Virus record (IMG/VR): IMGVR_UViG_3300011840_000036
Coordinates: 1-48,038 of that record
DNA from: a virus
Taxonomy: Duplodnaviria > Heunggongvirae > Uroviricota > Caudoviricetes
Direction: 5' to 3' (one strand)
Length of the DNA: 48,038 nucleotides
Translations under genes and position numbers: made by a program
Shown: piece by piece, positions 1 to 44,450 of the stretch
How positions within the stretch are numbered: position 1 is the first letter of the stretch
Layout: each line of letters begins with the position of its first letter
Notes under the pieces: model-generated
What the model saw: the letters and a program-made list of their open reading frames with translations, nothing else
The model's database searches: none
Told to the model about the DNA's origin: nothing

Positions 1-1131
1 TCAAATGACCAGTTTTTTCCACTCCTTGCCGCGTGCATCGTTGTAAATATCGGTCATTTTTTGATTCGAATGACCCAGCAAAATTTGGGTATCAATTCCC
101 TGCTCTCTGAACAATCGCTCTGATAAAGATCTCTGCTCATGGAAAGAGGGTGGGGTGCCATTAGCACGCCAGTTGTAATCCACAGAATCCCGCGCTTTTT
201 TAAATGCAACGGTTAACGTTGCTGGCTTAACCATCCCGCCGCGCTTAGCTGTCCCTTTCGCGTGATGATGGTGCAATAGCCACGGACTAAGAACGCAATC
301 GCGACAGGATGACACCACATCATCCAGGGTGAGATTTAATTTATCGCAACGCAGAGCCAGAGGGATGGCAATCCGGGTTCCTGTTTTTTGCTGTTCGATA
401 TGAAGATAACCATCCCGGATATCCGAAAATTGCATTTTGCAAATATCTGAAAGGCGCTGGCCTGTCATCAGTGCCAGCAGCATACCGCGCTGTAAAAAGT
501 AACCATCCTTTTCCGCTGCGTTATAAATCATCGTCCACTCATCAAAAGTCAGTCGCTGTCTTGATATCCGCACCTGTGGTTTTTTTGCCGATTCTGCAGG
601 GTTAAAGCCTGGCGGGACATCGCCCGTTTGCTGAGCCTCCCGGAAAACATCGATCAGTACCTTCCTGAAAATTTGTCCCATTCTGTTATGTCCTCTGGAC
701 TTGTACTCTTCCAGCACCGATACCACATCCTTTACGGTTATGGCATCTAACGGTCTGGTGCCAAAACGTTCATCAAAAACCCTGAGAGGGGCCGCTTTCT
801 GTTTCAGCGTGTTGAGTTTGATTTCTCCGTTTTCATATCTTTCCTGTTGAATTTTTCTGTAATTATTCAGAAAAATGGAAACGGTTGATGAACCGCCGGT
901 ATCATTAATAATTTTCTCCTGCAGACTGAGCATTTGCTCCATTTGTTGTCTGGCAAGACGGCTGTTCGCTTCTGCTGCAATGGTTTCCGCCAGTTTCTGG
1001 TCAATACTGCCGAGTCCATGATTTTTACCTGTGATGGGATGCCTGTAACGCCAGTAAACTTTGTTATTTCTTTTGTCAAAATACGGAGATAATCCCGGAA
1101 CAGCGGTTTTATATTTTCGCGGGCGTGCCAT
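1..1131 (-). CDS. int: Tyrosine-type site-specific integrase (lambda Int family)
   Basis: 376-aa ORF; C-terminus ...LLGHSNQKMTDIYNDARGKEWKKLVI resembles the lambda Int catalytic Tyr region; 23-bp overlap with the downstream excisionase ORF as in int-xis operons. Confidence 0.9.
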   Translation of the reverse strand: MARPRKYKTAVPGLSPYFDKRNNKVYWRYRHPITGKNHGLGSIDQKLAETIAAEANSRLARQQMEQMLSLQEKIINDTGGSSTVSIFLNNYRKIQQERYENGEIKLNTLKQKAAPLRVFDERFGTRPLDAITVKDVVSVLEEYKSRGHNRMGQIFRKVLIDVFREAQQTGDVPPGFNPAESAKKPQVRISRQRLTFDEWTMIYNAAEKDGYFLQRGMLLALMTGQRLSDICKMQFSDIRDGYLHIEQQKTGTRIAIPLALRCDKLNLTLDDVVSSCRDCVLSPWLLHHHHAKGTAKRGGMVKPATLTVAFKKARDSVDYNWRANGTPPSFHEQRSLSERLFREQGIDTQILLGHSNQKMTDIYNDARGKEWKKLVI

Positions 1132-9610: not shown

Positions 9611-10357
9611 ATGGAAACCGTTTTTGATGCACTGAAAGCAATGGGAAAAGCCACGTCGGTAGAGCTGGCTGCGCGACTTGATATCAGTCGTGAAGAAGTG
9701 CTGAACGAGCTGTGGGAACTGAAAAAGGCTGGCTTCGTTGATAAAAGCGTATACACCTGGCGTGTGGCTTATAACAACGTTCAGCAGGAACAGCCAGCGC
9801 CGGCAGAACTGTCGGAAGAAACCACCACGGCAACAGTCGCTAAAATTTCGGAGTGCGATTTAACTGCGACGGTTGAACAACGCGGACCACAAACGGCTGA
9901 TGAGCTGGCTACGTTGTTCGGTACAACATCACGCAAAGTGGCTTCAACGCTGGCAATGGCAATCAGCAAAGGTCGTCTGATTCGTGTAAACCAGAACGGT
10001 AAATTTCGTTACTGCATGCCGGGCGATAAGTTACCAGCAGAGCCGAAATCCGTGCCGGTAACGGAAAATGATGGTAAAGCCTTTCCTCAGCCAGCCGGTG
10101 TTGCGTTACCAGTACAGGAAGCTGCAACACAGGAAGATATTAAAACAGAAACTGTGGCTGATATTGTGCAATCGTTGCCATCGTTTACTGAAACGCGAGC
10201 GGATGACCTGGTTTTACCATCGCTGCATATGGCAAACCGCGAATTGCGTCGGGCGAAAAGTCATGTCCAGAAGTGGGCGCGAGTCTGCGCCGCGCTGCGG
10301 GAGCTGAACAAGCACCGGGATATGGTTGCCGGGATTTGTCGGAAGCCCGGGCAATGA
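9611..10357 (+). CDS. Winged-helix DNA-binding protein (DUF1627-like prophage protein)
   Basis: Start at [30 protein letters not shown]... with GGGAGG RBS; N-terminal wHTH followed by a Q/E/T-rich low-complexity region. Confidence 0.55.
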
Positions 10358-11216: not shown

Positions 11217-11975
11217 ATGAGGAACATAATGGCAGGTTTTTTAATATTTCTGTCTTCTGCTGCTTATGCTGATATCAATCTGTATGGTCCTGGTGGCCCG
11301 CATACAGCCTTGCTTGATGCAGCCAAACTTTATGCCGAAAAAACAGGTATTATAGTGAACGTTCATTACGGCCCACAGAACAAATGGAATGAAGATGCCA
11401 AAAAAAATGCAGATATCTTGTTTGGCGCATCAGAACAATCTGCTCTGGCTATCATTCGGGACCATAAAGACAGCTTCAGTGAAAAAGATATTCAGCCTCT
11501 TTATCTGCGAAAAAGTATTTTACTGGTAAAGAAAGGTAATCCTAAAAATATCCGGAGTATTGACGACCTGACCAGACCCGGGATTGGCGTAATTGTTAAT
11601 GATGGTGGTGGTACCAGTAATACATCAGGCACTGGCGTCTGGGAAGATATTGCCGGACGTAAAGGGAATATAGAAACTGTCGCCGCAATCCGAAAAAATA
11701 TTATTTTATATGCGCCCAATAGCGGAACTGCACGTAAGGCTCTTGAGAATCAGCCTGAAGCAGATGTCTGGATAACCTGGGCTGACTGGGCAGCCAGTAA
11801 TCCAGAAATTGGTGATGTCGTGGAAATAGCGCCAGACTACGTGATATGGCGTGATATGAACATTACAGTACGTCAGGATGCAAATGATGAAACCCGTCGA
11901 TTTGCAGAATGGCTACAAACCGATGAAGCGGCGCCTGCATTCAAAAAATATGGCTGGACCAGGAAAGGCACTTGA
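11217..11975 (+). CDS. Orphan periplasmic substrate-binding protein (ModA-like type 2 PBP fold) with signal peptide; moron
   Basis: 252-aa ORF; N-terminal MAGFLIFLSSAAYA signal-like segment; overall resemblance to ModA-type binding proteins (C-terminal ...FKKYGWT); AT-rich with its own promoter-like region and terminator; no permease or ATPase partner. Confidence 0.7.
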   Translation: MRNIMAGFLIFLSSAAYADINLYGPGGPHTALLDAAKLYAEKTGIIVNVHYGPQNKWNEDAKKNADILFGASEQSALAIIRDHKDSFSEKDIQPLYLRKSILLVKKGNPKNIRSIDDLTRPGIGVIVNDGGGTSNTSGTGVWEDIAGRKGNIETVAAIRKNIILYAPNSGTARKALENQPEADVWITWADWAASNPEIGDVVEIAPDYVIWRDMNITVRQDANDETRRFAEWLQTDEAAPAFKKYGWTRKGT

Positions 11976-13296: not shown

Positions 13297-14352
13297 GTGC
13301 GGGTATTACTTCGACCTGTTCTGGTACCGGAACTCGGGCTGGTGGTCCTTAAGCCAGGTCGTGAATCCATGCAGGTATTTCACAATACCCGGGTGCTGGT
13401 GGAGCCGGAACCGAAAAGCATGCGTAATCTGCCGTCCGGGGTCGTTCCTGCCGTTCGCCAGCCGCTGGTGGAAGACAAAACATTGCTGCCATTTTTCAGC
13501 GACGAACGAGTGATTCGTGCTGCTGGTGGTGCTGGTGCATTGTCTGACTGGCTGTTGCGCCATATTAAATCCTGCCAGTGGCCACACGGCGATTATCATC
13601 ACAGCGAAACCGTCATTCACCGTTATGGTACCGGCGCAATGGTGTTGTGCTGGCACTGCGACAACCAGCTGCGTGACCAGACCTCCGAATCATTCGGGCA
13701 ACTTGCTCACCAAAATTTGTCAGCATGGATGATTGACGTCATACGCCATGCAATGAATGGCACGCAGGAGCGGGAATTATCTCTGGCTGAATTATCCTGG
13801 TGGGCGGTCCGCAATCAGGTGGCGGACGCGCTACCGGAAGCGGTATTACGTCGTTCGCTGGGGTTGCGTGCGGAAAAAATCCGCTCAATGTACCGTGAAA
13901 GCGACATCGTACCGGGAGAGCAGACCGCCACCAGCATACTGAAGCAGCGCACAAAAAATCTTGCGCCGCTGCCTCACGCCCACCAGCAAAACCCGCCACA
14001 GGAAAAGACGGTGGTCAGCATTGCCGTTGATCCGGAGTCACCGGCTCAGTATCTCCAGCGCCAGAAACCACAACGGGAAGATATGCCTGTATACACGCGC
14101 TGGGTAAAAACGCAGAAATGCATGACGTGCGGTAATCAGGCAGATGATCCGCATCACATCATTGGTCATGGGCTGGGAGGGATGGGAACAAAGGCTGATG
14201 ATTTGTTTGTTATTCCGCTGTGCCGTAAATGTCATAACGAACTGCACGCCGGGGTAAAAGATTTTGAAGAAAAACACGGCAGCCAGCTGTTGTTGCTGAT
14301 TCGTTTTTTAATGCACGCGAGAAATTCGGGTGTCCTGAAGTGGAAAGCATGA
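13297..14352 (+). CDS. YdfU-like DUF968 protein with C-terminal Cys/His (HNH-like) motif
   Basis: 351-aa ORF (GTG start, GGAGG RBS); C-terminal CMTCGNQADDPHHIIGHG...CRKCHNELH; N-terminus MRVLLRPVLVPELGL resembles E. coli YdfU as recalled. Confidence 0.7.
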   Translation: MRVLLRPVLVPELGLVVLKPGRESMQVFHNTRVLVEPEPKSMRNLPSGVVPAVRQPLVEDKTLLPFFSDERVIRAAGGAGALSDWLLRHIKSCQWPHGDYHHSETVIHRYGTGAMVLCWHCDNQLRDQTSESFGQLAHQNLSAWMIDVIRHAMNGTQERELSLAELSWWAVRNQVADALPEAVLRRSLGLRAEKIRSMYRESDIVPGEQTATSILKQRTKNLAPLPHAHQQNPPQEKTVVSIAVDPESPAQYLQRQKPQREDMPVYTRWVKTQKCMTCGNQADDPHHIIGHGLGGMGTKADDLFVIPLCRKCHNELHAGVKDFEEKHGSQLLLLIRFLMHARNSGVLKWKA

Positions 14353-14730
14353 ATGACTGAACGCATAGAATTTGTTTTGCCTTACCCGCCGACGGTGAAT
14401 CCCTACTGGCGACGTCATGGCAATACGTATTTCATCTCGGAGGCCGGAAAGCGTTATCGCCGTGATGTGGCGCTAATTGTTCGCCAGCAGCGGTTGAAAT
14501 TAAACCTGTCCGGAAGGCTGGCGATAAAGATTATTGCAGAGCCACCGGATAAGCGCCGTCGTGACCTGGACAACCTGTTGAAAGCGCCACTGGATGCGCT
14601 GACGCATGCCGGACTACTCATAGACGACGAGCAATTTGATGAAATCAATATTGTGCGTGGTCTGCCTGTTTGCGGTGGGCGACTGGGTGTGAATATATTC
14701 GTAATAAGAGGATGTAATGATGTTGCGTGA
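14353..14730 (+). CDS. rusA: Holliday junction resolvase RusA
   Basis: 125-aa ORF; motifs [10 protein letters not shown] and [19 protein letters not shown] match the RusA family by eye. Confidence 0.85.
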
Positions 14731-15091
14731 TATTCAGCTGGTTATGGAGCGGTGGGGAGCATGGGCAGCAAATAATCATGAAGATGTAACATGGCCCTCG
14801 ATAGCTGCTGGTTTTAAAGGATTAATCCCGGCTAAAGTGAAATCACGTCCTCAGTGTTCTGATGATGACGCCATGATAATTTGTGGCTGTATGGCACGAT
14901 TAAACAAGAATAATCAGTATTTGCACGATTTGTTGGTGGATTATTACGTAGGTGGAATGACATTTATGGCTCTTGCACGTAAGCATAGATGTTCTGATGG
15001 GCTTATTGGTAAAAGACTTTATAAAGCAGAAGGTATTATTGAAGGAATGCTTATGGCTCTGAATGTCAGGTTAGATATGGATATGCGGTAG
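14717..15091 (+). CDS. Late-gene antitermination protein Q (QuuD-like small Q family)
   Basis: 124-aa [39 protein letters not shown]... closely resembles DLP12 QuuD as recalled; located just upstream of the late region. Confidence 0.8.
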
Positions 15092-15241
15092 GGATATATA
15101 GTGACTATGGTTATGTTTTCTATGTTTATAATCAATGTGTTTATTTTGTGGTCGTGAATTTTATGGAAAGTAAACAAAATGTTGCCAGGTGAATTGAAAA
15201 TATTGATAATCAATCTTCATCATTAAATAAAAGGAGTGTTT

Positions 15242-16060
15242 ATGTGGATTGTGTTAGCACTGTCACTGTCAACTCTCAGTTGGCATAAGGTAGTGGCTTT
15301 TTCATTGTTGACGGTGTCTGTTGTCCTGGCTGTGCTTAATGATATTATTGATTGGCCTGTGTTGTTTCTTGTTGCTACAATCGTTTTTTTTATTATTTTG
15401 AAGTTCAACTGGAAATATAACGCCTGGGCTAAATCCATATATGAAGCTGGCATAGTTTTATCAGCCATAGCATTATCTTTCCATTTATGGCCAGGGTTTC
15501 ACAATCCTGTAGTGCTAAAGTCTGTTACTGTCGGACCTCAAAGCACTCCCTATACAATGTATTTTAATTTTGATAAAGCACTGGTGCCATTTTTGTTAGT
15601 CCTGTGTACAGCTTCTTTGTTTAAAAAAGAAGTGAAATCAGAAGTATCTTTGTGGAAGTGGGGGGGGCTGTTGCTCTCTGTTCCTCTTATCCTGTTTTTG
15701 GCTGTTTTTTTTGGTGGGTTAAAGCCAGAGATTCATTTTCCTGAGTGGTTGCCAGAGTTTATATTGGCTAATTTGTTTTTTGTGTCTCTGGCAGAGGAAT
15801 CATTATTTAGAGGGTATATTCAATCACGGCTATCAGAAGTGACGTCTCCATTGGTTGCGTTAATTGTGGCGTCTTTGTTGTTTGGTTTTTTTCACTATTC
15901 AGGTGGTGCTTTACTTGTATTATTTGCCACGTTATCTGGTGTTGTGTATGGATTGTCATGGATGTGGAGTGGGCGCTTGTGGGTGGCAACCCTTTTCCAT
16001 TTTGGTCTGAATCTGTGTCACTTGTTATTCTTTACCTATCCATTCTTAAAATATAATTGA
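15242..16060 (+). CDS. CPBP-family (CAAX protease/Abi-type) intramembrane metalloprotease; moron
   Basis: Multi-pass membrane protein with EESLFRGY and FGFFH motifs typical of the CPBP/Abi family; AT-rich; AAGGAG RBS; followed by its own terminator. Confidence 0.75.
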   Translation: MWIVLALSLSTLSWHKVVAFSLLTVSVVLAVLNDIIDWPVLFLVATIVFFIILKFNWKYNAWAKSIYEAGIVLSAIALSFHLWPGFHNPVVLKSVTVGPQSTPYTMYFNFDKALVPFLLVLCTASLFKKEVKSEVSLWKWGGLLLSVPLILFLAVFFGGLKPEIHFPEWLPEFILANLFFVSLAEESLFRGYIQSRLSEVTSPLVALIVASLLFGFFHYSGGALLVLFATLSGVVYGLSWMWSGRLWVATLFHFGLNLCHLLFFTYPFLKYN

Positions 16061-16200
16061 TTTTTTCTATGGCTTTAAATTTATAACACTGAAAAATAGC
16101 AAGATGTGACATTTGCATGAAAAATATGCACGGCAAAGCATTTACGTACGTAAAAAATCATGTATGCTTTTAAGAGTGGTTATTTCACCGCATAGCCTGA

Positions 16201-16223
16201 ACCCGCCTCTGAGCGGGTTTTTT
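16201..16223 (+). terminator. Rho-independent terminator after the CPBP gene
   Basis: ACCCGC-ctctga-GCGGGT stem followed by TTTTTT. Confidence 0.65.
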
Positions 16224-16346
16224 GTGCTCGCAAAGTAGCGCAGTGCGTTAAATGTGCTGGTGGTTATTAATACTGGTCCTTCTGCTTGCAGGCTTTTTCG
16301 ACAAGAGTTATTGGTATGTCACGTTAACCAGAAAAGGGAAAAAGAC

Positions 16347-16544
16347 ATGCTAAAACAGCAGGATATGACCGAAACCGCCAGAGTGGTGTTTAATGAATTA
16401 AGCGTCACCGAACCGGCGACCGTCGGGGAGATTGCGCAGAATACTTACCTTTCACGCGAGCGCTGCCAGTTAATACTGACCCAGCTTGTTATGGCGGGCC
16501 TGGCAGATTATCAGTTCGGTTGTTACAGACGCCTTCCGCAGTGA
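16347..16544 (+). CDS. Small winged-helix-like protein (65 aa)
   Basis: Start at MLKQQDMTETARVVFNELSVTEPATVGEIAQNTYLSRERCQLIL...; pattern resembles the N-terminal wHTH of the 9611 protein; sits directly upstream of the methyltransferase. Confidence 0.45.
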   Translation: MLKQQDMTETARVVFNELSVTEPATVGEIAQNTYLSRERCQLILTQLVMAGLADYQFGCYRRLPQ

Positions 16545-16694
16545 AGGCTTTTTTATTTGTGGTAATGGGCGGCTGGTGGGTGTTAGCGGCACCTGCCAGC
16601 CATCTGCTCATGCGTTGGGGTCACAAGCAAACCTCAGGCCCATCTGCTTTGCGCAAAAGCGGAATGAGCCTATCAGAGAAGTGCTTATTGATCT

Positions 16695-17741
16695 ATGGTT
16701 AATACTGTAAAAATATCCAGTTGTGAGTTAATCAACGCTGATTGCCTGGAATTTATCCAGACCTTACCGGAAAACTCTGTCGATTTGATAGTCACAGACC
16801 CGCCATACTTTAAAGTGAAGCCCGAGGGCTGGGATAACCAGTGGAAGGGTGACGATGATTACCTGAAGTGGCTGGACCAGTGTCTGGCGCAGTTCTGGCG
16901 GGTACTGAAGCCCGCCGGAAGTCTTTACCTGTTCTGTGGGCATCGTCTGGCATCTGATATCGAGATCATGTTGCGTGAACGTTTCAACGTGCTTAACCAT
17001 ATCATCTGGGCGAAGCCGTCCGGACGCTGGAACGGGTGCAGGAAGGAAAGCCTGAGGGCATATTTCCCGGCAACAGAGCACATACTGTTTGCTGAACATT
17101 ACCAGGGGCCATATCGGCCAAAAAATGATGGCTATGTGGCAAAGGGGCGCGAGCTTAAACAGCATGTCATGGCTCCGCTGATTTCTTACTTTCGTGATGC
17201 GCGTGAATCACTGGGGATTACGCCGAAACAGATAGCGGAAGCCACCGGAAAGAAAAACATGGCTTCGCACTGGTTTGGTGCCAGCCAGTGGCAGTTACCG
17301 AACGAAGCTGATTACAGAAAGCTGCAGGCGTTGTTTGCGCGTGTTGCAGCAGAAAAACATCAACGCGGAGAACTGGAAAAGCCACACCACCATCTGGTCA
17401 GCACATACAGCGAACTGAACCGGCAATATGTCAGCCTGCTGGAAGAGTATAAATCTTTGCGGCGTTATTTTTCCGTATCGGCTGCCGTTCCTTATACGGA
17501 TGTCTGGACGCACAAACCTGTGCAGTATTATCCGGGTAAACATCCGTGTGAGAAGCCAGCAGATATGTTGCGGCAGATAATTACAGCCAGCAGTCGTCCG
17601 GGGGAACTGGTTGCAGACTTTTTTATGGGATCGGGGGCGACTATAAAGGCTGCGCTCTCTCTGGAACGTAGAGCTATTGGTGTAGAGCTGGAAACGGACA
17701 GGTTTAATCAAACGTTTGATGAAATAAGAAACAATAGTTAG
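16695..17741 (+). CDS. Orphan DNA methyltransferase (beta-class N6-adenine/N4-cytosine type)
   Basis: 348-aa ORF; DPPY motif near the N-terminus (LIVTDPPYF) and FxGxG motif near the C-terminus (DFFMGSGAT); no adjacent restriction endonuclease. Confidence 0.85.
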   Translation: MVNTVKISSCELINADCLEFIQTLPENSVDLIVTDPPYFKVKPEGWDNQWKGDDDYLKWLDQCLAQFWRVLKPAGSLYLFCGHRLASDIEIMLRERFNVLNHIIWAKPSGRWNGCRKESLRAYFPATEHILFAEHYQGPYRPKNDGYVAKGRELKQHVMAPLISYFRDARESLGITPKQIAEATGKKNMASHWFGASQWQLPNEADYRKLQALFARVAAEKHQRGELEKPHHHLVSTYSELNRQYVSLLEEYKSLRRYFSVSAAVPYTDVWTHKPVQYYPGKHPCEKPADMLRQIITASSRPGELVADFFMGSGATIKAALSLERRAIGVELETDRFNQTFDEIRNNS

Positions 17742-17907
17742 CTTTTTTTTGCGAACTTTTTAATTTTTATAATATTGTATAATTATGTTTTAAATACCTG
17801 ACATTGTTTGTATTGAAACAGGAGCGGAATTCATTATTATTCTTCGTCGGTTCCAAGGGAGGGTAATTTATGTATCCGGGCATCTCATCCACACCTGAGG
17901 AACCAAT

Positions 17908-17983
<76 letters not shown>

Positions 17984-17986
17984 TAT

Positions 17987-18061
<75 letters not shown>

Positions 18062-18414
18062 TCATTATTCTGGCAACACGAATTATACAGCACTGGCGTG
18101 TTTTTTTACGTGGGGGCAGGTTGTTTTAAGACATCTTTGGTCCTCAGGCTATGGTTTAAGGTCGGTTATAGCCTCAGTGCTGATTTTTTACAACAATGGA
18201 ATGGTGCATTATCGGTGGAGATTTAGTATTTCCTGGCAGGGCTGATGATGCACTATCCCGGTGTTGTAAAAACACTACAGAGGTGTTCCTCAGTGCGAGG
18301 GTGGTTTAAAGAGTCGGTTTAGCGGGAAACCACAGTATCCTTGTGGGGCTGGATGCTTCGGGAGGCACCCGACACTTCTGAATACAATTAAATCATGCGT
18401 TTTTATATGCCATT

Positions 18415-18441
18415 AACCGCCGCTCCAGGCGGTTTTTTTTA
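18415..18441 (+). terminator. Rho-independent terminator
   Basis: AACCGCC-gctcca-GGCGGTT stem followed by a run of 8 T. Confidence 0.65.
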
Positions 18442-19060
18442 TTCAAAGTTCGGGGTTACAAGTGCTCGCTTCCACTACTTTGGTTTTTACAATTATAGTT
18501 TTTGGGAGAATCTTCATGGGGCGTGCTTCATCCTTTGCAATTCGCTGATCCTGGTGTATGAGACAATGAAGTCCATGCGGTAACGAAGGTCGGATATCTG
18601 CTCGGTTTTATTCTGGTAATTTGGGGCCTTCGCTTTTTACGGATGCGGGCAGCACAAGGTTATTGGGGCGACGGCCATCATTGTTGCATTTGCAGGAGTT
18701 ATTCTGAGTCCGACAAGAATATGCTGTTGAGTGCACGGCTGGCTGAAAGAAACTGCCACCTGAAGAATGGTGAATTTATTTAGTAGGGGATCCTGGATGA
18801 AATTGAACGGGATGATAACTCCGAAATTAGTCCACTGAGGAATGCCTTATACAAGAGATCATGGATAACCCTCGGGCATTTACAGGAAGCAAACGCCACT
18901 TACTTCACTACCCCGGAGAAGTGGGGACTGTCAATATGACAGATAACAAAATCTGAAAATGAGTCTCTCCAGTTGAGAAATATACGATGAAGGAGCATTC
19001 TGTTCAGCGCAAAGTAATCCGTTTTGTGATGAATAATCTCGAGAGTCATTTTTCATTCCT

Positions 19061-19089
19061 GCCAGCCTCCCCAGAGCTGGCTTTTTTTT
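19061..19089 (+). terminator. Rho-independent terminator upstream of the lysis genes (tR'-like candidate)
   Basis: GCCAGC...GCTGGC stem followed by TTTTTTTT. Confidence 0.6.
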
Positions 19090-19154
19090 GAGGCCTGTTC
19101 TGACGGGCTTTGTTGTATTCGCTCCACGTCCCATACATATCAAATCTGAATAAC

Positions 19155-19200
19155 ACCACACAAAGGCATCTGCGGATGTCTTTGGTGTGGTGTTTTTTTT
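19155..19200 (+). terminator. Second hairpin plus T-run directly upstream of the holin gene
   Basis: Imperfect long inverted repeat CCACACAAAGGCATC...GATGTCTTTGGTGTGG followed by TTTTTTTT. Confidence 0.5.
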
Positions 19201-38955: not shown

Positions 38956-40110
38956 ATGCCGTTTGAGCGTCCCGGATTAAGCGAACTGCGTGAGAAAAGC
39001 CGGTCGTATGTGACCGGCCAGCTGGATGAGGCCGGTGCCCTGCTGCGGTTTTCCACGCTGGGGATTCTGGCGGATGCCGTGGCGGGCATGACGCATCTGC
39101 ATTACGGCTATCTTGACTGGATAGCGCAGCAGTGCACACCGGCCACGGCCACCGGGGAATATCTGGCGGCGTGGGGGGCACTGAAGGGCATCATCCGCAG
39201 GGCAGCAGTGGCGGCCACCTGTGAGGCGGTGCGCTTTACGGGCACACCGGGCAGCACGGTGAGCGCGGAGGCGGTGCTGAACCGTGCGGACGGGTATCAG
39301 TACACGCTGGATGAGGATGTGAGCATTGACAGTGACGGCAGCGGCACGGGGAGCATCACGGCGGTGCTGCCGGACCCGACGGATGACCGCAGCGGCGGTG
39401 GTGATGACGGTAACGCGGATGCCGGAACGACCCTGACACCGGATGTCACCTGGTCAGGCATCGACTCAACGGTGACGATGGTGAGTGCCGCCACCGGCGG
39501 CAGTGACACTGAGGATGAGGAAGCGTACCGCCAGCGCGTGCTGTATGCGTACCAGAACCCGCCTCAGGGCGGGGCGGCGGCGGACTATGTGCAGTGGGCG
39601 CTGGAAGTTCCCGGTGTGACCCGTGCATGGTGTGTGAACCGTGCACTGGGGTTCGGGACGGTGGGTGTTTACATCATGACGGACGGAGATGATGAAGACA
39701 ACGCCGGGGGCTTTCCTGACGGCACGGACGGGGTGGCAACGGATGAGGACTGGACGGACCGGAAAGCCACGGGGGTGCAGCTGACGGTGGCGGACCATAT
39801 CCGGCAGTACCAGCCGGTCACGGCGGTGGTGTACGTGATGTCGCCGGTGGCCAGAAGCATTGATTTTGAGATACAGGGGCTGAGCAGTGCCACGGCGGCA
39901 CTGAAGGCACGGGTGGAGAGTGCCATCAGCGAGGTGCTGTACAACGTGGGTGAACCGGACGGCAGCGGGGTGATTCACCTTTCAGACCTCTGGTACGCCA
40001 TTGCGGACACAGAGGGGACAGACGGGTTCATTCTGGTGTCTCCTGACAGCAACATCACGCTGTCGCAGGGAGAGCTGCCGGTGACCGGAACGATAACCTG
40101 GGCAACATGA
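38956..40110 (+). CDS. Baseplate J-like protein (Mu gp47-like)
   Basis: Start at MPFERPGLSELREKS... (ORF track begins upstream at a TTG, 38887); about 384 aa. Confidence 0.75.
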   Translation: MPFERPGLSELREKSRSYVTGQLDEAGALLRFSTLGILADAVAGMTHLHYGYLDWIAQQCTPATATGEYLAAWGALKGIIRRAAVAATCEAVRFTGTPGSTVSAEAVLNRADGYQYTLDEDVSIDSDGSGTGSITAVLPDPTDDRSGGGDDGNADAGTTLTPDVTWSGIDSTVTMVSAATGGSDTEDEEAYRQRVLYAYQNPPQGGAAADYVQWALEVPGVTRAWCVNRALGFGTVGVYIMTDGDDEDNAGGFPDGTDGVATDEDWTDRKATGVQLTVADHIRQYQPVTAVVYVMSPVARSIDFEIQGLSSATAALKARVESAISEVLYNVGEPDGSGVIHLSDLWYAIADTEGTDGFILVSPDSNITLSQGELPVTGTITWAT

Positions 40111-43100
40111 GGAACAGGATGAGTCGTTTTTCACATGATGACTACACGCGCGCGATGCTGAACCTTCTGCCGTCAGGGATTGCCTGGAGCCGTCTGCCTG
40201 ACAGCGTGCAGCACCGGCTGATACGCGGACTGGCACAGGCGTACCGGCAGAGTGACGCTGATGCGTGCGCACTGATAACGGGCGCCTTCCCGGAAACGGC
40301 GGATGCGCTCACTGATGAGTGGTATGCCTCGCTGGGGCTGAATGATGAATGCGGGACGCAGGCATCCACCACAGACCCGGCGCAGGCCAGAAAATTCATT
40401 CTGGCGAAACTGCTGTCGACGGGCGGGCAGAGTGTGGCGTATTTCACGGAGCTTGCGGCGACGATGGGGTACAGCATCAGTATCCGTGAGTACCGCACAC
40501 CACTGTGCGGATTTTCGTGGAGCGGGCATCTGCTGAGTGACGACAACCGGTTTAACTGGACCGTGGTGGTGGCCCCGCCGGGGGATGAGGTGACCACCTC
40601 ACGGGCGTACCTGGAGTGCCTGTTTCGTCGTTATGCCCCGGCGCATACGCTGGTGACGTTTGAGTGGCAGTTATCGTACAGCGCCGCCCTGAGCATTGCA
40701 TGGGACAACATCACACACGTTCTTTCCGGCGCGCTCACGGCAGATGAGGGGGTGGTGGTGTCGGGGGTGACGGTGAATGTTGTCATCAAATCCGCGTCGG
40801 GACAGCGGTATGTGGCGACAGTGACAACGGACAGTGAAGGGCACTGGTCGTATGAAATGGAGGATGATGATTTTGCGAACGGCTGGTATTCGGCGTATGC
40901 AGAGGCTGCCGTTGACATGCCGGATGACGTGACAGTACCGGTACGCAGTGAGGTGATAAATCTGCGGAAAACCGTGAGTGTGCGCGGTGTGAGCCTGTCG
41001 GTCACTGAGCTGGAGCTTGACAATGATGAGTGTGCTGCGGTTGCGGTGAGTGTCTGGCCGGAGAATGCTGAAGACCGGAGCTGGACTGTGACGGTCAGCG
41101 ATGAAAGCGTGGTGTCGGTGGTGGTCAACAGCGACAGTTCACTGACCGTGTGCGGGATGAGCGAAGGTGATGCGGTGGTGACGGTGACGACAAATGACGG
41201 CGGACACACGGCAACATTACAGGTCAGCTGTTACGTGCCGGCGGTTTTTGATTCGGTCTGTGCTTCATCGTCAAAAGCGCTGGTCAGTGTTGCTGATGTG
41301 GTGAACTGCCGTGTCAGCTTCGGCGACGGATATGTTGCTGCGGACCAGCTTGAAACGACAACCAGCGGGGGCTGGGCGAATATCCTGTTACCCGACTCAC
41401 TGGCAGACGGGGAGCTCCGGACAATCAGGGTGAGAACGGCGGGGAGTGTCAGGTTCAGGGTGTACGGGTACAGCAGCACGGCTTACAACGACCTGGTCAG
41501 ACTACGTCAACTTCCGGCGGGACAAAAATCCTGTAGCTACCTTGCGAGTAATACCCCCAGTCTGGTGAGTATTGACAGCGGCGCATTCCGTTTTTGCAAA
41601 AACGCTACGGCATTCGACAGTGCATTTTACCGGTGTAAAGGACTGACTGCGATACCTCCGGGGCTGTTTGCTGAGTGCGCCAGCGCCACGACGTTCTATC
41701 AGGCATTTTACGAATGTACGGGACTCAATGCAGTCGGTGACAGCGCATTTGCCGGGTGCACCGGTGCCACAACGTTTAAGGATACCTTTCGTGGTTGTAC
41801 CGGACTGAGAACGGTGGGTGACAGCGTGTTTGCCGGGTGCACCGGTGCCACAACGTTTGAGGATACCTTTTATGGTTGTACCGGACTGAGTGCCGTGGGG
41901 GACCATGTGTTTGCCGGGTGCACCAGTGCGACAACATTTTACAGGGTCTTTTATAACTGCAGGGAACTGAGCACGGTGGGTAACAGCGTGTTTGCCGGAT
42001 GTGCCAGTGCCACAACGTTTTTGCAGGCCTTTTATGGCTGCCAGGCGCTGACATCATTAGGTCAGGGGATATTTGCAGACTGCACCGGGGTGACGACATT
42101 CCTCCAGGCTTTTTATAACTGCAGGGGACTGACGGCATTGCCGGAAGGGATGTTTGACAGCTGCACTGCCGTGACCACGTTCAGTAATGCCTTTTATGGC
42201 TGCACGGCTCTGACAGCAATACCGGAAGGGTTGTTTGACAGTTGTACCGGGGTGACGACATTCAACCGGACGTTTTATGGCTGCGCGGCCCTGACAGCGA
42301 TACCGGCAAAATTGTTCGCAAACTGCACAGAGGTTGCGACGTTTGAGGGGGTGTTTTCGGGATGCTCGGGGCTGGTAACGATACCGGCAGGGTTATTTGA
42401 AAAACTCACCAGTGTCACGACGTTTGACAGCGCGTTTTACGGGTGCAGGGCACTGACAACAGTGGGTGACAGAGTATTTGCTGGTTGTACAGGTACCACA
42501 ACATTCGCAAGCGTATTTGAAGGTTGCACCGGACTGGTCACGATACCGGCTGACGTGTTTGCTGGTTGTTCGGGTGTCAGATCGTTTTACCGGTCGTTTT
42601 TGGGGTGTACAGGACTGGCAATGGTCCCCCCGGAATTGTTTGCAGATTGTACCGGAGCCACGACGTTCTATACGACATTTTACCGTTGTACCCGTCTGTC
42701 GGAAGTTCCTGCAGAGTTGTTTTCCGGTTGTACCGGAGCAAAGTCTTTCTATAAGACTTTTGGCGAATGTACCGGGTTGTCGGAGGTACCGGCCAGATTA
42801 TTTGCAGACTGTACCGGTGCCACGACGTTTGAGGGGGTGTTTTCGGGATGCCGGGGGCTGACAACGATACCGGCAGGGTTGTTCGCTGACAGCGCCAGTG
42901 TCACCACTTTCTTTGAGGCGTTTTACGAATGCACGGGCCTGACCGCGATACCGTCAGGATTGTTTGCAGACTGTGTAAGTGTGACAACCTTCAGGCGGAC
43001 CTTTTACGGTTGTTCCGGGCTGAGAACGCTGGGCGACAATGTGTTTGCCGGTTGTGTCAGTGCCACAACGTTTGAAGACACCTTTTATGGTTGTACCGGG

Positions 43101-44450
43101 CTGACAACGGTGGGAGACGGCGTGTTTGCCGGATGTACCAGTGTTACGACGTTCTACCGGGCGTTTTACGGCTGTACGGGGCTGACATCCATAGGAGAGG
43201 GAGTGTTTGCAGGTTGTACTGCTGTGACGACGTTCAGTAGTGCTTTTTATAACTGCAGGGGACTGACGGCATTGCCGGAAGGGATGTTTGACAGCTGCAC
43301 TGCCGTGACCACGTTCAGTAGTGCTTTTTATGGCTGTACGGCTCTGACAGCGATACCGGCAGGGCTGTTTGACAACTGCGTCTCTGTGACGACGTTCAGT
43401 TATGCCTTTGGCGACTGTGTGAGACTGAAGGCGCTGCCTGCCGGGCTGTTTGAAAACTGTAGTCGTGTGACGACCTTCTTCCGGACGTTTTATGGCTGCA
43501 CGGAACTGGTAACGGTGGGGGAAAGGGCGTTTGCAGGCTGCAGCAGTGCATCGACGTTCGAAGGCACATTTTACGACTGCACGAAGCTGACAACGCTGGG
43601 AGACAGTGTATTTGACGGATGTACAGGTGTGACGTCGTTCTATCAGACTTTCAGTGGCTGCACGAAGCTGACAGCAATACCTGCAGGGCTGTTTGACAGC
43701 AGCCACGGCGTGACAACCTTCTACCGGACATTTTACCGGTGTGCCGCCCTGACGACGGTGCCTGAGGCGGTATTTGACCGTTGTGTCAGCGCAGGGTCTT
43801 TCCAGGATACGTTTTTCGGTTGTACGGGGCTGACGATGTTACCTGCAGGATTGTTTGATAACTGTACCCGTGTGACGTCGTTTTACCGGACGTTCCGGGG
43901 CTGTACAGGTCTGAAGACACTGCCGGAAGGGTTGTTTGACAACAACACTGCTGTGACCACGTTCAGTCAGACTTTTTACGGCTGTACGGGGCTGGCGGTG
44001 CTGCCTGCCGGGCTGTTTGAAAACTGTACCGGAGTGACATCGTTCTATCAGACCTTTGATGGTTGCACGGGGCTGATGACGATACCGGACGGACTGTTTG
44101 CAGGACTCGCCAGCGTCACAACATTCAGAGAGACCTTTAACGGTTGTACGGGGCTGACCACTGTGGGCGACGGCTTGTTTGCGGGGTGCGTCAGTGCGAC
44201 GACGTTTGAAGGCACCTTTTACGGTTGCACAGGGCTGGAGAGTGATGTGAATGACATCCTCCCGGCGGAAGAGTACCCGCAAATAACCAGTGTGTACCGT
44301 TGTTTTTACAACTGCCGGTCATTGCAGGGAAGCGGATGTGCGCTCATTGAGAAGTTGCCTGGCGTGACGAGTTACGCGGATGCGTTTTATAACTGCGTAT
44401 CCCTGAGCGATTTCAGGACCTTGTCTGAGCGTTATCCAGTCTGGGTTTAA
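40107..44450 (+). CDS. Giant chimeric tail protein: N-terminal Mu gp48/YmfQ-like baseplate domain, Ig-like (Big_2-type) domains, then about 33 cysteine-rich 27-residue BspA-type leucine-rich repeats
   Basis: Single uninterrupted 1447-aa ORF; start overlaps the J-like stop; N-terminal ~190 aa resemble YmfQ/gp48; central segment VSVWPENAEDRSWTVTVSDESVVSVVVNSDSSLTVCGMSEGDAVVTVTT is Big_2-like; the remainder repeats the FxGCTGLTxIPxGLFxxCTxVTTFxxxF unit. Confidence 0.8.
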   Translation: MRNRMSRFSHDDYTRAMLNLLPSGIAWSRLPDSVQHRLIRGLAQAYRQSDADACALITGAFPETADALTDEWYASLGLNDECGTQASTTDPAQARKFILAKLLSTGGQSVAYFTELAATMGYSISIREYRTPLCGFSWSGHLLSDDNRFNWTVVVAPPGDEVTTSRAYLECLFRRYAPAHTLVTFEWQLSYSAALSIAWDNITHVLSGALTADEGVVVSGVTVNVVIKSASGQRYVATVTTDSEGHWSYEMEDDDFANGWYSAYAEAAVDMPDDVTVPVRSEVINLRKTVSVRGVSLSVTELELDNDECAAVAVSVWPENAEDRSWTVTVSDESVVSVVVNSDSSLTVCGMSEGDAVVTVTTNDGGHTATLQVSCYVPAVFDSVCASSSKALVSVADVVNCRVSFGDGYVAADQLETTTSGGWANILLPDSLADGELRTIRVRTAGSVRFRVYGYSSTAYNDLVRLRQLPAGQKSCSYLASNTPSLVSIDSGAFRFCKNATAFDSAFYRCKGLTAIPPGLFAECASATTFYQAFYECTGLNAVGDSAFAGCTGATTFKDTFRGCTGLRTVGDSVFAGCTGATTFEDTFYGCTGLSAVGDHVFAGCTSATTFYRVFYNCRELSTVGNSVFAGCASATTFLQAFYGCQALTSLGQGIFADCTGVTTFLQAFYNCRGLTALPEGMFDSCTAVTTFSNAFYGCTALTAIPEGLFDSCTGVTTFNRTFYGCAALTAIPAKLFANCTEVATFEGVFSGCSGLVTIPAGLFEKLTSVTTFDSAFYGCRALTTVGDRVFAGCTGTTTFASVFEGCTGLVTIPADVFAGCSGVRSFYRSFLGCTGLAMVPPELFADCTGATTFYTTFYRCTRLSEVPAELFSGCTGAKSFYKTFGECTGLSEVPARLFADCTGATTFEGVFSGCRGLTTIPAGLFADSASVTTFFEAFYECTGLTAIPSGLFADCVSVTTFRRTFYGCSGLRTLGDNVFAGCVSATTFEDTFYGCTGLTTVGDGVFAGCTSVTTFYRAFYGCTGLTSIGEGVFAGCTAVTTFSSAFYNCRGLTALPEGMFDSCTAVTTFSSAFYGCTALTAIPAGLFDNCVSVTTFSYAFGDCVRLKALPAGLFENCSRVTTFFRTFYGCTELVTVGERAFAGCSSASTFEGTFYDCTKLTTLGDSVFDGCTGVTSFYQTFSGCTKLTAIPAGLFDSSHGVTTFYRTFYRCAALTTVPEAVFDRCVSAGSFQDTFFGCTGLTMLPAGLFDNCTRVTSFYRTFRGCTGLKTLPEGLFDNNTAVTTFSQTFYGCTGLAVLPAGLFENCTGVTSFYQTFDGCTGLMTIPDGLFAGLASVTTFRETFNGCTGLTTVGDGLFAGCVSATTFEGTFYGCTGLESDVNDILPAEEYPQITSVYRCFYNCRSLQGSGCALIEKLPGVTSYADAFYNCVSLSDFRTLSERYPVWV
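41580..44420 (+). repeat. 81-bp-periodic coding repeat array with long near-identical copies (about 80 nt perfect identity at about 42109..42186 and 43243..43320)
   Basis: Direct comparison of the two copies shows an identical stretch followed by about 90 percent identity over a further ~60 nt; spacing 1134 bp (14 x 81). Confidence 0.75.

Follow-up and report, generated by a model that had tools for sequence, protein, structure and literature searches.

The methyltransferase gene examined here lies in a 48,038-nt window (the whole stretch of viral DNA that was analyzed) and encodes another allele of a characterized and very common prophage enzyme. By sequence, the enzyme is a member of the M.EcoGI/GII clade of adenine methyltransferases. 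We interpret its locus as the segment nearest the promoter in a Q-dependent late operon, carried by a lambdoid, phiP27-like Escherichia coli prophage, and assign a probability of about 0.62 to this explanation as a whole. The analysis itself shows the homology, the order of the genes, the RNA covariation, the terminator hairpins and the selection on the small ORF; non-specific activity, lysogen silence and toxicity are carried over from papers on homologs, and Q-dependence, the role against restriction, gating of translation and any role of the small protein are inferred. The elements of the locus are as follows.

14717-15091, + strand, Q-family late antiterminator, the presumed driver of cassette expression (PF06530 Phage_antitermQ, E = 6e-51)
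16100-16172, + strand, candidate late promoter (pR'-like) region with a -10-like TATGCT at ~16160-16165, placed by eye only and with low confidence
16199-16228, + strand, tR'-like intrinsic terminator T1, ahead of the small ORF; its 8-bp stem has five G-C pairs and is followed by T7
16256-16263, + strand, Chi site (GCTGGTGG) preceding the small ORF and also conserved in phiP27 and 1720a-02
16288-16327, + strand, motif in the 5' UTR of the small ORF, CTTGC..-N-..AGAGTTAT.GGTATGTCAC, recognized by cross-species conservation
16347-16544, + strand, small winged-helix protein gene, 65 aa (ATG at 16347 to TGA at 16544; phrog_331, E = 1e-37)
16531-16556, + strand, hairpin T2, whose loop holds the stop codon of the small ORF, followed by T6
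16558-16675, + strand, structured RNA leader of 118 nt within a 150-nt spacer, recognized by covariation and ending 20 nt before the methyltransferase AUG
16572-16579, + strand, Chi site within leader hairpin P1, on its 5' arm, lost in divergent leaders whose hairpin is kept by compensatory changes
16676-16694, + strand, methyltransferase translation-initiation region, with no Shine-Dalgarno sequence and able to pair with the 3' arm of P2
16695-17741, + strand, M.EcoGI/GII-clade beta-class N6-adenine DNA methyltransferase, 348 aa (PF01555, identity to M.EcoGII, PADLOC MTase_II)
17908-18061, + strand, tRNA-Thr(UGU) and tRNA-Gly(UCC), the following genes of the late transcription unit (ARAGORN; Rfam tRNA, 69.8 and 65.6 bits)

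Both reading frames proposed in the initial annotation were recovered, at 16347-16544 (65 aa) and 16695-17741 (348 aa), and its description of the second as an orphan beta-class methyltransferase with DPPY and FxGxG motifs is borne out for this prophage-borne enzyme. The protein matches the PF01555 (N6_N4_Mtase) profile at 143.4 bits over residues 29-339, against a cut-off of 26.7, and the PADLOC MTase_II model at E = 2e-151. Motif IV (DPPY, residues 35-38, nt 16797-16808) lies toward the N-terminus, the target-recognition domain (TRD) is central, and motif I (FMGSG, residues 310-314, nt 17622-17636) lies toward the C-terminus, which is the order of the beta class. Pfam and PADLOC searches of ~40 ORFs, including every ORF longer than ~180 aa and part of the shorter early-region ORFs, detected no restriction endonuclease, in agreement with the annotation of the enzyme as lacking a partner.

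Alignment to M.EcoGII shows 293 of 347 residues identical over the full length, or ~84%, a figure that is approximate because the reference sequence was taken from a machine-read PDF with obvious errors (PMC11551740, Suppl. Table S1). As a cross-check, the methyltransferase of phage 1720a-02, which has been named as very similar to M.EcoGII (PMC5778455), is 84% identical to the window's enzyme. M.EcoGII/M.EcoGI, from a prophage of E. coli O104:H4 C227-11 (GenBank EGT69837.1), are likewise orphan, prophage-borne enzymes with the beta-class motif order; M.EcoGII has 349 aa to the 348 of the window's enzyme, and the likeness between the two extends through the TRD. They differ by ~16%, with most of the divergence in the C-terminal SAM-binding half: identity is 94% in the N-terminal catalytic region, 83% in the TRD (residues 160-237, where 13 of 78 positions differ) and 72% in the C-terminal catalytic region. 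M.EcoGII, M.EcoGI and reconstructed ancestors are reported to methylate adenine in any context, in DNA, ssDNA and RNA (PMC5778455, PMC11551740), and the reconstructed ancestors of the clade stay largely non-sequence-specific (PMC11551740). By extrapolation from 84% identity, the window's enzyme would also methylate adenine independently of sequence. The earlier view of it as an orphan of unknown specificity is superseded by its place in a clade with ~84% identity to an enzyme acting on adenine in any context (PMC5778455).

Why would a prophage carry such an enzyme? Protection of phage DNA from restriction, one of the roles suggested in the initial annotation, is the most plausible. M.EcoGII is reported to be unexpressed in lysogens and harmful to the cell under constitutive expression (PMC5778455). 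No lysogen transcript of the M.EcoGI homolog M.EcoMV was detected by RT-PCR in EC958 (PMC4659465), no motif was detected for the homolog in O111 lysogens (PMC6602927), and a review sets the enzyme alongside Mu Mom, which is likewise silent and toxic (PMC12707154). By analogy with these homologs, the window's gene would be silent in the lysogen and its non-specific product toxic if mis-expressed. Since homologs are silent in lysogens, a missing lysogen motif is to be expected even from a fully functional enzyme and is not a valid refutation of its activity.

The gene order of the locus suggests how such silence could be achieved. The cassette lies downstream of a Q antiterminator and an intrinsic terminator and upstream of tRNA and lysis genes, in the order Q (PF06530), T1, small ORF, T2, methyltransferase, tRNAs, holins. 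Phages phiP27 and 1720a-02 have the identical gene order, with stx located 3' of the tRNAs, and the cassette is present in 2836 of 5426 complete E. coli genomes. The Q protein, labeled 'antiterminator Q family protein' in RefSeq, is a distant relative of the Q21 structures 6JNX and 6P18 (E = 7e-8). The arrangement resembles lambdoid pR'-tR'/Q control of the type that yields the short terminated StxS RNA, in which Q is followed by a short region, a strong intrinsic terminator and the late genes, including tRNAs, the stx site and lysis genes. It differs from this scheme in that Q is only distantly related to Q21, a CPBP-protease gene intervenes between Q and the putative late promoter, and two extra genes and a structured leader are present between tR' and the tRNAs. 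A mention of a methylase was sought in the StxS paper and not found.

The late promoter was placed visually, on the basis of three to ten sequences in alignment. In phiP27 and 1720a-02, the same position holds a TATnnT hexamer with TTAAGAGTGGT after it, and GTTAAGAGTGGTCAC is found again ahead of T1 in several other species. The consensus promoter scan missed this candidate and returned no + strand promoter-like site at all between 15400 and 17800, so that neither the late promoter nor promoters belonging to the small ORF or the methyltransferase can be called objectively. A weak isrK-like Rfam match (16146-16223; 21.9 bits, E = 0.14) covers the T1-terminated region. The T1 stem is kept in phiP27 and 1720a-02 with a variable loop, and an equivalent G+C hairpin with a T-run precedes the small ORF by ~70-100 nt in essentially all 57 species-level loci. 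T2 is terminator-like in the window because T6 follows it; in 1720a-02, its stem is retained and its loop altered. A hairpin spanning the stop codon occurs in 51 of 58 loci and is followed by a T-tract in only 11, so T2 is not generally a terminator. The motif at 16288-16327, which is not promoter-like in the consensus scan, is kept from E. coli to Xenorhabdus/Photorhabdus at 35-55 nt upstream of the small-ORF ATG.

The late promoter of Stx phages is constitutive yet terminated (PMC7547250). We propose that in a lysogen of the window's prophage, a constitutive late promoter combined with the block at T1 leaves the enzyme unmade: transcripts would end at T1 (16199-16228), and any that leak through would meet the T2 hairpin (16531-16556). 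T1 and T2, the empty promoter scan and the behavior of homologs (PMC4659465, PMC6602927) are all consistent with silence of the gene in this state. Upon induction, Q would render RNA polymerase resistant to the terminators, and the small ORF, leader, methyltransferase, tRNAs and lysis genes would be co-transcribed. The 348-aa product would then use SAM to convert adenine to N6-methyladenine with essentially no sequence requirement, so that replicating phage DNA would become heavily adenine-methylated ahead of packaging and the progeny would be shielded from many adenine-sensitive restriction systems in the next host. At the mRNA level, two conserved and mutually exclusive folds of the leader may gate translation of the methyltransferase.

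The leader lies in the cassette's 150-nt spacer, which is better conserved than the adjoining methyltransferase gene. A helix, P0 (UGGGC/GCCCA), forms the base of a three-way junction from which hairpins P1 (16571-16601) and P2 extend, and hairpin P3 follows. When 40 sequences were aligned with MAFFT, paired cells made up 88.6%, compared to 27-44% in slid controls, and 16 pairs are changed on both sides compared to 4-7 in controls; none of 500 shuffles reached the observed values, and RNAalifold independently recovers P0, P1 and P2. A covariance model of the leader (R1) matches once in each of 56 loci, always on the + strand. Scores are 71-138 bits on the sense strand and about 13-16 bits on the reverse strand, and the structure is assigned to the sense strand because G-U pairs are tolerated there only. 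Among independent viral-contig matches, 74 of 78 have the methyltransferase start 53-55 nt after the end of the leader pattern.

How might this RNA act? The initiation region, which has no Shine-Dalgarno sequence, can enter an alternative helix that pairs GGUCACAAGCA with UGCUUAUUGAUC in the window and GGUCACAAGCG with CGCUUACUGAUC in the consensus. This helix is 87% paired compared to 26-41% in slid controls, with four pairs changed on both sides, and minimum-free-energy folds of single sequences adopt it. Taken together, the two alternative helices are 87% and 99% paired versus 26-54% in slid controls, with compensatory support that is modest or absent. Because one of the two mutually exclusive folds would pair the initiation region, translation of the methyltransferase is probably gated by the leader. 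Two further pairings noticed by eye, GCUCAU/GUGAGC downstream and an AUCAG/CUGAU hairpin at the start site, are uncompensated in divergent sequences and were rejected. With its multi-stem junction, strong covariation, highly conserved unpaired nucleotides and a candidate pairing that would occlude the initiation region (the alternative helix being moderately supported), the leader resembles riboswitches and other RNA switches. It differs from known riboswitches in matching no Rfam family: a search of Rfam 15 (4227 families, including the SAM and SAH classes) at E <= 1 gave no match at 16545-16694 or in the leaders of five diverse loci. A literature search found no described leader of this kind. 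Divergent leaders also occur without the methyltransferase, before a holin gene in two loci (L189, L181) and before an AraC-type gene in a third (L013), showing that the leader is not strictly a methyltransferase device.

The 65-aa ORF upstream is a real gene, under purifying selection with a median dN/dS of 0.25 over 937 pairs. The winged helix proposed for it is upheld by an AlphaFold2 model (pLDDT 92.8) of three helices and a beta-hairpin (H9-16, H26-33, H37-49, E53-56, E59-62), although its Pfam winged-helix matches are all below gathering thresholds (TrmB, 18.0 vs 25.6 bits; MarR_2, 14.7 vs 27; DprA_WH and HTH_24 also sub-threshold). NCBIfam and PADLOC gave nothing for the small ORF. The protein is near-neutral, with variable basic residues in helix 3 and the wing; LTQ (44-46) and Cys40 are conserved, and Cys58 is present in most members. 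The family comprises 334 clusters at 90% identity, enterobacterial in all clusters listed. When 1.8 billion proteins, clustered at 50%, were searched with its profile, only 61 representatives of a narrow enterobacterial family were returned and no informative distant relatives. The resemblance noted earlier to the '9611 protein', which belongs to DUF1627 (PF07789) and carries a winged helix at its N-terminus, where the similarity lies, is real but weak, at 33% over 48 aa by BLASTP (pairwise E = 1e-4). A Zalpha-type, Z-DNA-binding reading was rejected by eye, as the key Asn/Tyr positions of Zalpha helix 3 are Cys/Leu. No described function for the small ORF was found in a literature search, and the M.EcoGII literature searched describes neither the small ORF nor the terminators or RNA leader.

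What, then, does the small protein contribute? It is a conserved but dispensable accessory, and our best guess is that it modulates expression or activity of the methyltransferase after transcription. It might bind the leader or its own stop-codon hairpin and switch translation of the toxic enzyme as Com does for mom in phage Mu, or bind the enzyme or DNA and so direct or limit methylation; in this specific form, the idea is tentative, and the odds are against it. In Mu, translation of mom is controlled by a small upstream gene (~62 aa) together with a hairpin in the mRNA at the start site, a layout analogous to the 65-aa ORF, structured leader and presumably toxic modifier seen here. The components are unlike, since Com is a four-cysteine zinc-finger RNA binder and the small protein a predicted winged helix with only two conserved cysteines, and Mom, unlike an M.EcoGII-type enzyme, is not a SAM methyltransferase. 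Mom is nevertheless silent in the lysogen, toxic if mis-expressed and late, a parallel with enzymes of the M.EcoGII type that has been drawn in review (PMC12707154).

Linkage of the two genes favors such a functional partnership. Among 78 species-level loci gathered by way of the methyltransferase, 57 have the small ORF upstream of it; among 74 gathered by way of the small ORF, 73 have the methyltransferase as its partner, and in the sole exception, the methyltransferase has been replaced. Adjacency persists at 42-53% protein identity in distant hosts, and the most divergent homologs are found behind two different Q families. The two genes are separated by a structured RNA that has two conserved alternative folds, and an ACCAGAGT core is found upstream of both genes; the near-neutral protein with its variable basic residues and conserved LTQ and Cys40 also fits a post-transcriptional role. 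The distribution of the leader weighs on the other side. Methyltransferase loci without the small ORF still carry it in 18 of 21 cases, which argues against an obligatory protein-leader partnership and is a further difference from Mu, and Xenorhabdus/Photorhabdus loci with the small ORF give no leader-model match at E <= 1. Moreover, Foldseek searches of the PDB and BFVD returned generic winged helices at E ~1e-3, with no function-specific match or RNA-binding relative.

Somewhat more doubtful is the alternative that the small ORF, as a moron-like late gene, is functionally independent of the methyltransferase and lies next to it through joint inheritance of a Chi-bounded recombination block. 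Hairpins or terminators are present on both of its flanks, as with morons, and in the 21 of 78 methyltransferase loci that lack it, its site is held by unrelated ORFs. Among the best 80 of 585 viral loci, the small ORF is 100% identical and the adjacent methyltransferase 84 to 97%; an invariant small ORF beside a variable methyltransferase indicates a mosaic junction. Two + strand Chi sites also flank the gene. A passenger gene is harder to reconcile with an adjacency that holds at 42-53% identity, in distant hosts and with different Q types, and with a single exception in 74 loci that itself involves replacement of the methyltransferase.

It is unlikely that the small ORF encodes a classical DNA-binding transcription factor acting on the methyltransferase promoter or its own. 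The fold invites this reading: the best PDB match by TM-score (0.80, with a weak E of ~2e-3) is the MarR-family repressor OhrR, IclR-type regulators also match, homologs are named 'TrmB family transcriptional regulator' by NCBI, and a conserved block precedes the start codon. In the initial annotation, the protein was suggested to be controller-like. Controller (C) proteins are built on a five-helix HTH of the Xre type, bind C-box operators and set the timing of a restriction gene. The small protein shares with them its size, its nucleic-acid-binding type and its position just upstream of, and co-directional with, a modification gene. However, it is a winged helix without an HTH_3 (PF01381-like) match, and no restriction gene needing delay was found. 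The 16229-16346 interval holds a conserved non-palindromic block and no convincing inverted repeat suitable as a C-box-like operator, and no + strand promoter-like site was detected from T1 to the methyltransferase. The 65 aa comprise the winged helix alone, with no added dimerization or effector domain and with sub-threshold Pfam scores, and the gene is optional, being absent in 21 of 78 loci. The controller reading is accordingly not sustained.

Could conservation of the spacer reflect a DNA-level function, as a Chi hotspot or a linker at which mosaic modules recombine, instead of an RNA structure? Chi is present in the P1 5' arm in most Enterobacteriaceae and also in the unrelated short spacer of two loci (L083, L084), the window holds 12 Chi sites where 2.2 are expected, and the spacer outstrips the methyltransferase gene in conservation. 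A tandem repeat as the cause of four closely spaced Chi sites at 13338-13529 was unsupported. We consider this explanation improbable: where Chi is lost, compensatory changes preserve the pairing of P0, P1 and P2, G-U tolerance and the model scores (71-138 vs about 13-16 bits) favor the sense strand, and the distance to the start codon is fixed. Least probable is a sequence-specific orphan whose expression in the lysogen would affect host genes epigenetically, as with the orphans Dam and CcrM, even though 13 of the 78 TRD positions are not shared with M.EcoGII. Against it stand the ~84% identity to a non-specific enzyme, homologs without a lysogen methylation signal or transcript (PMC5778455, PMC4659465, PMC6602927) and harm under constitutive expression (PMC5778455), together with two terminator hairpins and no promoter-like site upstream. 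The epigenetic role in the lysogen put forward in the initial annotation is unlikely because homologs are silent and deleterious if constitutive (PMC5778455, PMC4659465, PMC6602927, PMC12707154) and two terminator hairpins separate the gene from Q upstream.

For the late-operon reading, a practical consequence is that a lysogen methylome would probably give a false negative for this methyltransferase, while virion DNA after induction should reveal the enzyme. The locus also offers candidate elements by which a genome-wide adenine methylase may be kept harmless: two terminator hairpins, a covarying leader with two alternative folds, an initiation region without a Shine-Dalgarno sequence and a conserved 65-aa winged-helix gene. 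More speculatively, and with the balance of our judgment against it, the 118-nt leader may be a new RNA switch that gates the first late gene, with the winged-helix protein as its trans partner or that of the enzyme, in a Com/mom-like safety system. If true, this would be a safety system built from parts unrelated to Com/mom, present in about half of sequenced E. coli genomes and placed before an enzyme widely used as a reagent. In Stx phages, the cassette lies between Q and stx, and modulation of its read-through or mRNA fate would act upstream of Shiga toxin expression.

What is new at this locus? The methyltransferase belongs to a family that is already characterised and extremely common. 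The novelty lies in its regulatory context: a winged-helix gene conserved next to the methylase and, above all, an apparently undescribed leader RNA between the two. Profile scans of its ORFs identify the window as a complete phiP27-like lambdoid prophage of E. coli, with host-like genes at the right end. After the integrase come a RecE-like exonuclease, a Rha/Ash protein, a CI-type repressor and replication genes; then the DUF1627 protein (start at 9611), a DUF968/HNH protein, RusA, Q and the lysis genes; and then a lambda-type terminase and portal and a Mu-like contractile tail. Q belongs to PF06530, with Q21 a distant relative. The cassette runs in the order Q, T1, small ORF, T2, leader, methyltransferase, tRNAs and lysis genes.

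Features of the prophage and its cassette
1-1131, minus strand: lambda-type integrase
16199-16228: T1, strong intrinsic terminator, upstream of the cassette and downstream of Q
16347-16544, plus strand: small winged-helix ORF, 65 aa
16531-16556: T2, hairpin whose loop holds the small-ORF stop codon, followed by T6
16558-16675, plus strand: leader, a three-way junction plus hairpin with covariation, in a spacer reaching the ATG at 16695
16695-17741, plus strand: methyltransferase, 348 aa

Phages phiP27 and 1720a-02 carry Q, small ORF and methylase in that sequence, followed by tRNAs (phiP27) and stx. The window shares the layout of phiP27, except that it carries tRNA-Thr and tRNA-Gly, lacks toxin genes, and has a CPBP-protease gene replacing the GIY-YIG nuclease gene that phiP27 carries between Q and the small ORF. 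This CPBP/Rce1-like intramembrane protease gene (PF02517; phrog_13291; 15236-16060, plus strand) lies between Q and the putative late promoter, near a promoter-like site at 15182-15210. Because phiP27 carries its nuclease gene there, this position looks like a variable moron slot. Where phiP27 has stx, about 1.1 kb between the tRNA genes and holin (18062-19186) holds no convincing ORF; terminator-like hairpins lie at 18415-18434 and 19089-19112, and its Rfam matches are all sub-threshold. Elsewhere, the early-right region carries an unusual cargo, a periplasmic solute-binding-protein-like ORF (11217-11975, plus strand; PF13531 SBP_bac_11, E = 2e-34), and the tail-fibre region encodes a 1447-aa protein (40107-44450, plus strand) combining a Mu Gp48-like N-terminus, Big_2 and BspA-type leucine-rich repeats.

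The initial annotation described an orphan beta-class methyltransferase preceded by a small winged-helix ORF. Both ORFs are present, and the class holds: PF01555 scores 143 bits, and DPPY (residue 35) and FMGSG (residue 310) stand in beta-class order. Solved structures match the enzyme at the generic beta-class level only. Its orphan status also held, as Pfam and PADLOC scans of about 40 prophage ORFs, including every ORF longer than ~180 aa, detected no restriction enzyme. Murray et al. described M.EcoGII (349 aa) as a prophage non-specific adenine methyltransferase and noted a very similar enzyme in phage 1720a-02 (PMC5778455). The window enzyme is 84% identical to that of 1720a-02 and matches M.EcoGII at 293/347 residues, about 84%, an approximate value given that the reference, from the SUPREM paper supplement (PMC11551740), is machine-read text with a few obvious errors. 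Identity to M.EcoGII is 94% in the N-terminal catalytic region, 83% in the target-recognition domain and 72% at the C-terminus. Because of these identities, and because M.EcoGI, M.EcoGII and reconstructed clade ancestors are reported to be largely non-sequence-specific (PMC5778455, PMC11551740), we file the window gene in the M.EcoGI/GII clade, and its own allele may likewise be non-specific. Megablast matches to the 1.8-kb cassette segment occur in 2836/5426 complete E. coli genomes, at up to 7 copies per genome, and in 51 phage records, among them phiP27, many Stx2a, Stx2c and Stx2d phages and phage 1720a-02. In RefSeq, the pair is labelled 'hypothetical protein' and 'DNA-methyltransferase' on an E. 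coli chromosome of 99.7% identity.

The small ORF is a real gene. It matches phrog_331 (E = 1e-37; function unassigned), and its family forms 334 protein clusters when grouped at 90% identity; among the matches listed, those with a name come from enterobacteria (Escherichia, Shigella, Salmonella, Klebsiella, Citrobacter, Buttiauxella). The family is narrow, since only 61 representatives occur among 1.8 billion clustered proteins. A median dN/dS of 0.25 (937 pairs), with the third codon position most variable, shows purifying selection. The AlphaFold2 model (pLDDT 92.8) has the three helices and beta-hairpin of a winged helix; every Pfam wHTH match is sub-threshold. Foldseek matches are generic and weak (E about 1e-3): MarR-family OhrR at TM 0.80, IclR N-domains, and winged-helix dimerisation domains of small-molecule O-methyltransferases. 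The protein lacks the extra domain of TrmB/MarR regulators. The suggestion of a controller-like regulator is unsupported, the protein being no C-protein by fold or context, while its proposed likeness to the N-terminus of the DUF1627 protein is real and weak (33% over 48 aa).

How tightly are the two genes linked? The methyltransferase follows the small ORF in 73/74 viral loci with room downstream, an AraC-type gene replacing it in the exception, and the most divergent small-ORF homologues (42-53% identity) all have a PF01555 gene downstream. Conversely, the small ORF lies directly upstream in 57/78 species-level methyltransferase loci, about 80-155 nt separating the two genes everywhere except at one locus; the remaining 21 have unrelated ORFs, or nothing, at its position. 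The association is strong, not obligatory. In the best 80 of 585 viral loci, the small-ORF protein is 100% identical, and the adjacent methyltransferase is 84 to 97% identical to the window enzyme. An invariant protein beside a variable one points to mosaic recombination, with its boundary at the leader or beyond it. A CTTGCTG-N8-10-ACCAGAGTTAYCTGTRTGTCAC block (16288-16327) occurs 35-55 nt upstream of the small-ORF start in 57 loci; it is not promoter-like and is kept from E. coli to Xenorhabdus and Photorhabdus. Its ACCAGAGT core reappears at the leader 3' end. The window also has short direct repeats at 16256/16572, 16275/16637 and 16287/16542, suggesting that part of the leader was duplicated around the small ORF.

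A comparison of phiP27, 1720a-02 and the window shows stronger conservation in the 150-nt spacer than in the methyltransferase gene itself; the spacer contains no conserved reading frame and also precedes the methyltransferase in loci lacking the small ORF. Forty leaders from different species were aligned with MAFFT. In the RNAalifold consensus, helix P0 (UGGGC/GCCCA) closes a junction with the 12-bp hairpin P1 and hairpin P2, and hairpin P3 comes next. For our 32-pair structure laid on the same alignment, 88.6% of cells are paired, versus 27-44% in controls with partners slid by 1-3 columns; 16 pairs are changed on both sides (4-7 in controls), as are 51 cells (6-13 in controls), and 0/500 shuffles reach any observed pairing measure. 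G-U pairs are frequent, which assigns the structure to the sense strand. Searched with a covariance model, 56 loci each yield a single strong copy (71-138 bits), always on the plus strand and ending ~20 nt before the start codon; among them are 18 of the 21 that lack the small ORF. At E <= 1 the model has no match in the Xenorhabdus and Photorhabdus loci, where a P1-like hairpin is kept, as judged by eye. An independent pattern scan of viral contigs gave 120 matching stretches, with 80 loci listed; of the 78 analysed, 74 have a methyltransferase start 53-55 nt beyond the leader pattern. Two divergent true copies (49 bits; viral-contig loci L189:2195-2310, plus strand, and L181:6141-6256, minus strand) lack the methyltransferase and sit between a 273-aa cysteine-rich Q-like antiterminator with terminator, different from the window's Q, and a holin gene. 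At a third such locus (L013:4212-4335, plus strand), the small ORF and a divergent leader precede an AraC-type regulator gene, without a methyltransferase. Because two copies precede a holin gene instead, the leader is a late-operon element whose fusion to the methyltransferase is usual but not universal. It has no match among the Rfam 15 families, and the searches possible found no description in the literature; it is a well-supported structured RNA, apparently undescribed.

Could the leader act as a switch? The methyltransferase start lacks a Shine-Dalgarno sequence. Folded singly, two leaders adopt a different fold, not the junction: AUGGGC pairs with GCUCAU adjoining P1, and the freed P2 3' arm (GGUCACAAGCG) pairs with CGCUUACUGAUC directly 5' of the AUG. 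Across the 40-leader alignment, the first helix is 99% paired (31-54% in slid controls), with one-sided changes only, and the second is 87% paired (26-41% in slid controls), with four pairs changed on both sides. One leader has a G-to-A change in UGGGC still compatible with both partners. Each of the two alternative helices is kept, a pattern characteristic of an RNA switch that has occluding and non-occluding states; support for the second state is moderate. Such a switch could respond to co-transcriptional kinetics, to SAM, SAH or another metabolite, to the small protein or to the enzyme itself.

When would the cassette be expressed? Growing lysogens with close homologues show no methylation signal, the EC958 homologue gives no transcript by RT-PCR, and constitutive expression of close homologues sickens cells (PMC5778455; PMC4659465 for the RT-PCR; PMC6602927; PMC12707154). 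Because homologues are silent in lysogens, the epigenetic role offered in the initial annotation is unlikely, while protection of phage DNA remains reasonable; refutation by a lysogen methylome would misfire for the same reason. T1 and T2 keep their stems and differ in their loops in phiP27 and 1720a-02. A G+C hairpin and its T-run stand ~70-100 nt upstream of the small ORF in 57 species-level loci, preceded by at least three unrelated promoter-like sequence types, and the antiterminators ahead of the cassette come from two different Pfam families. A consensus promoter scan of 15400-17800 found no promoter-like site on the plus strand. On the simplest reading, T1 would be the tR' of the late operon and the small ORF and methyltransferase Q-dependent late genes, a general logic also described for Stx phages (PMC7547250). 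The late promoter is tentatively placed, by eye, at about 16100-16172.

A weak isrK-like Rfam match (16146-16223, plus strand; 21.9 bits, E = 0.14) lies in the region that T1 closes, and a Symbiopectobacterium locus (L136:1927-2116, plus strand) carries full isrK (73 bits) and C4 antisense RNA (74 bits) ~750-950 nt upstream of its leader and methyltransferase. The small-ORF stop lies in a hairpin loop in 51/58 loci (window 16531-16548). Because only 11/58, the window among them, have a T-tract after it, this hairpin is a conserved RNA feature, not a general terminator; it would be melted by a terminating ribosome. Chi (GCTGGTGG) occurs 12 times in the window versus 2.2 expected (0/100 shuffles reach 12), including 13338, 13395, 13464, 13522, 16256, 16572 and 19206 on the plus strand and 13928 and 13980 on the minus strand. 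Four plus-strand copies, spaced 57-69 nt, occupy the 5' part of the DUF968/HNH gene and are not a tandem repeat. Two plus-strand copies flank the small ORF, one within leader hairpin P1.

Our proposal draws, at this locus, on M.EcoGII homology, gene order, hairpin conservation, RNA covariation, purifying selection on the small ORF and the missing restriction partner; non-specific m6A activity, lysogen silence and toxicity come from papers on homologues (PMC5778455; PMC4659465; PMC6602927; PMC12707154). The cassette would be expressed late under Q, the leader would gate methyltransferase translation, perhaps with some role for the small protein, and hypermethylation of progeny DNA could confer broad anti-restriction. 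In Mu com-mom, a small upstream gene and an mRNA hairpin at the start site accompany a toxic late DNA modifier. It is the closest analogy in logic; the parts are unrelated, and in 18 loci the leader does without the small ORF. The finding would gain in interest if the leader, alone or together with the small protein, is indeed a dedicated safety switch.
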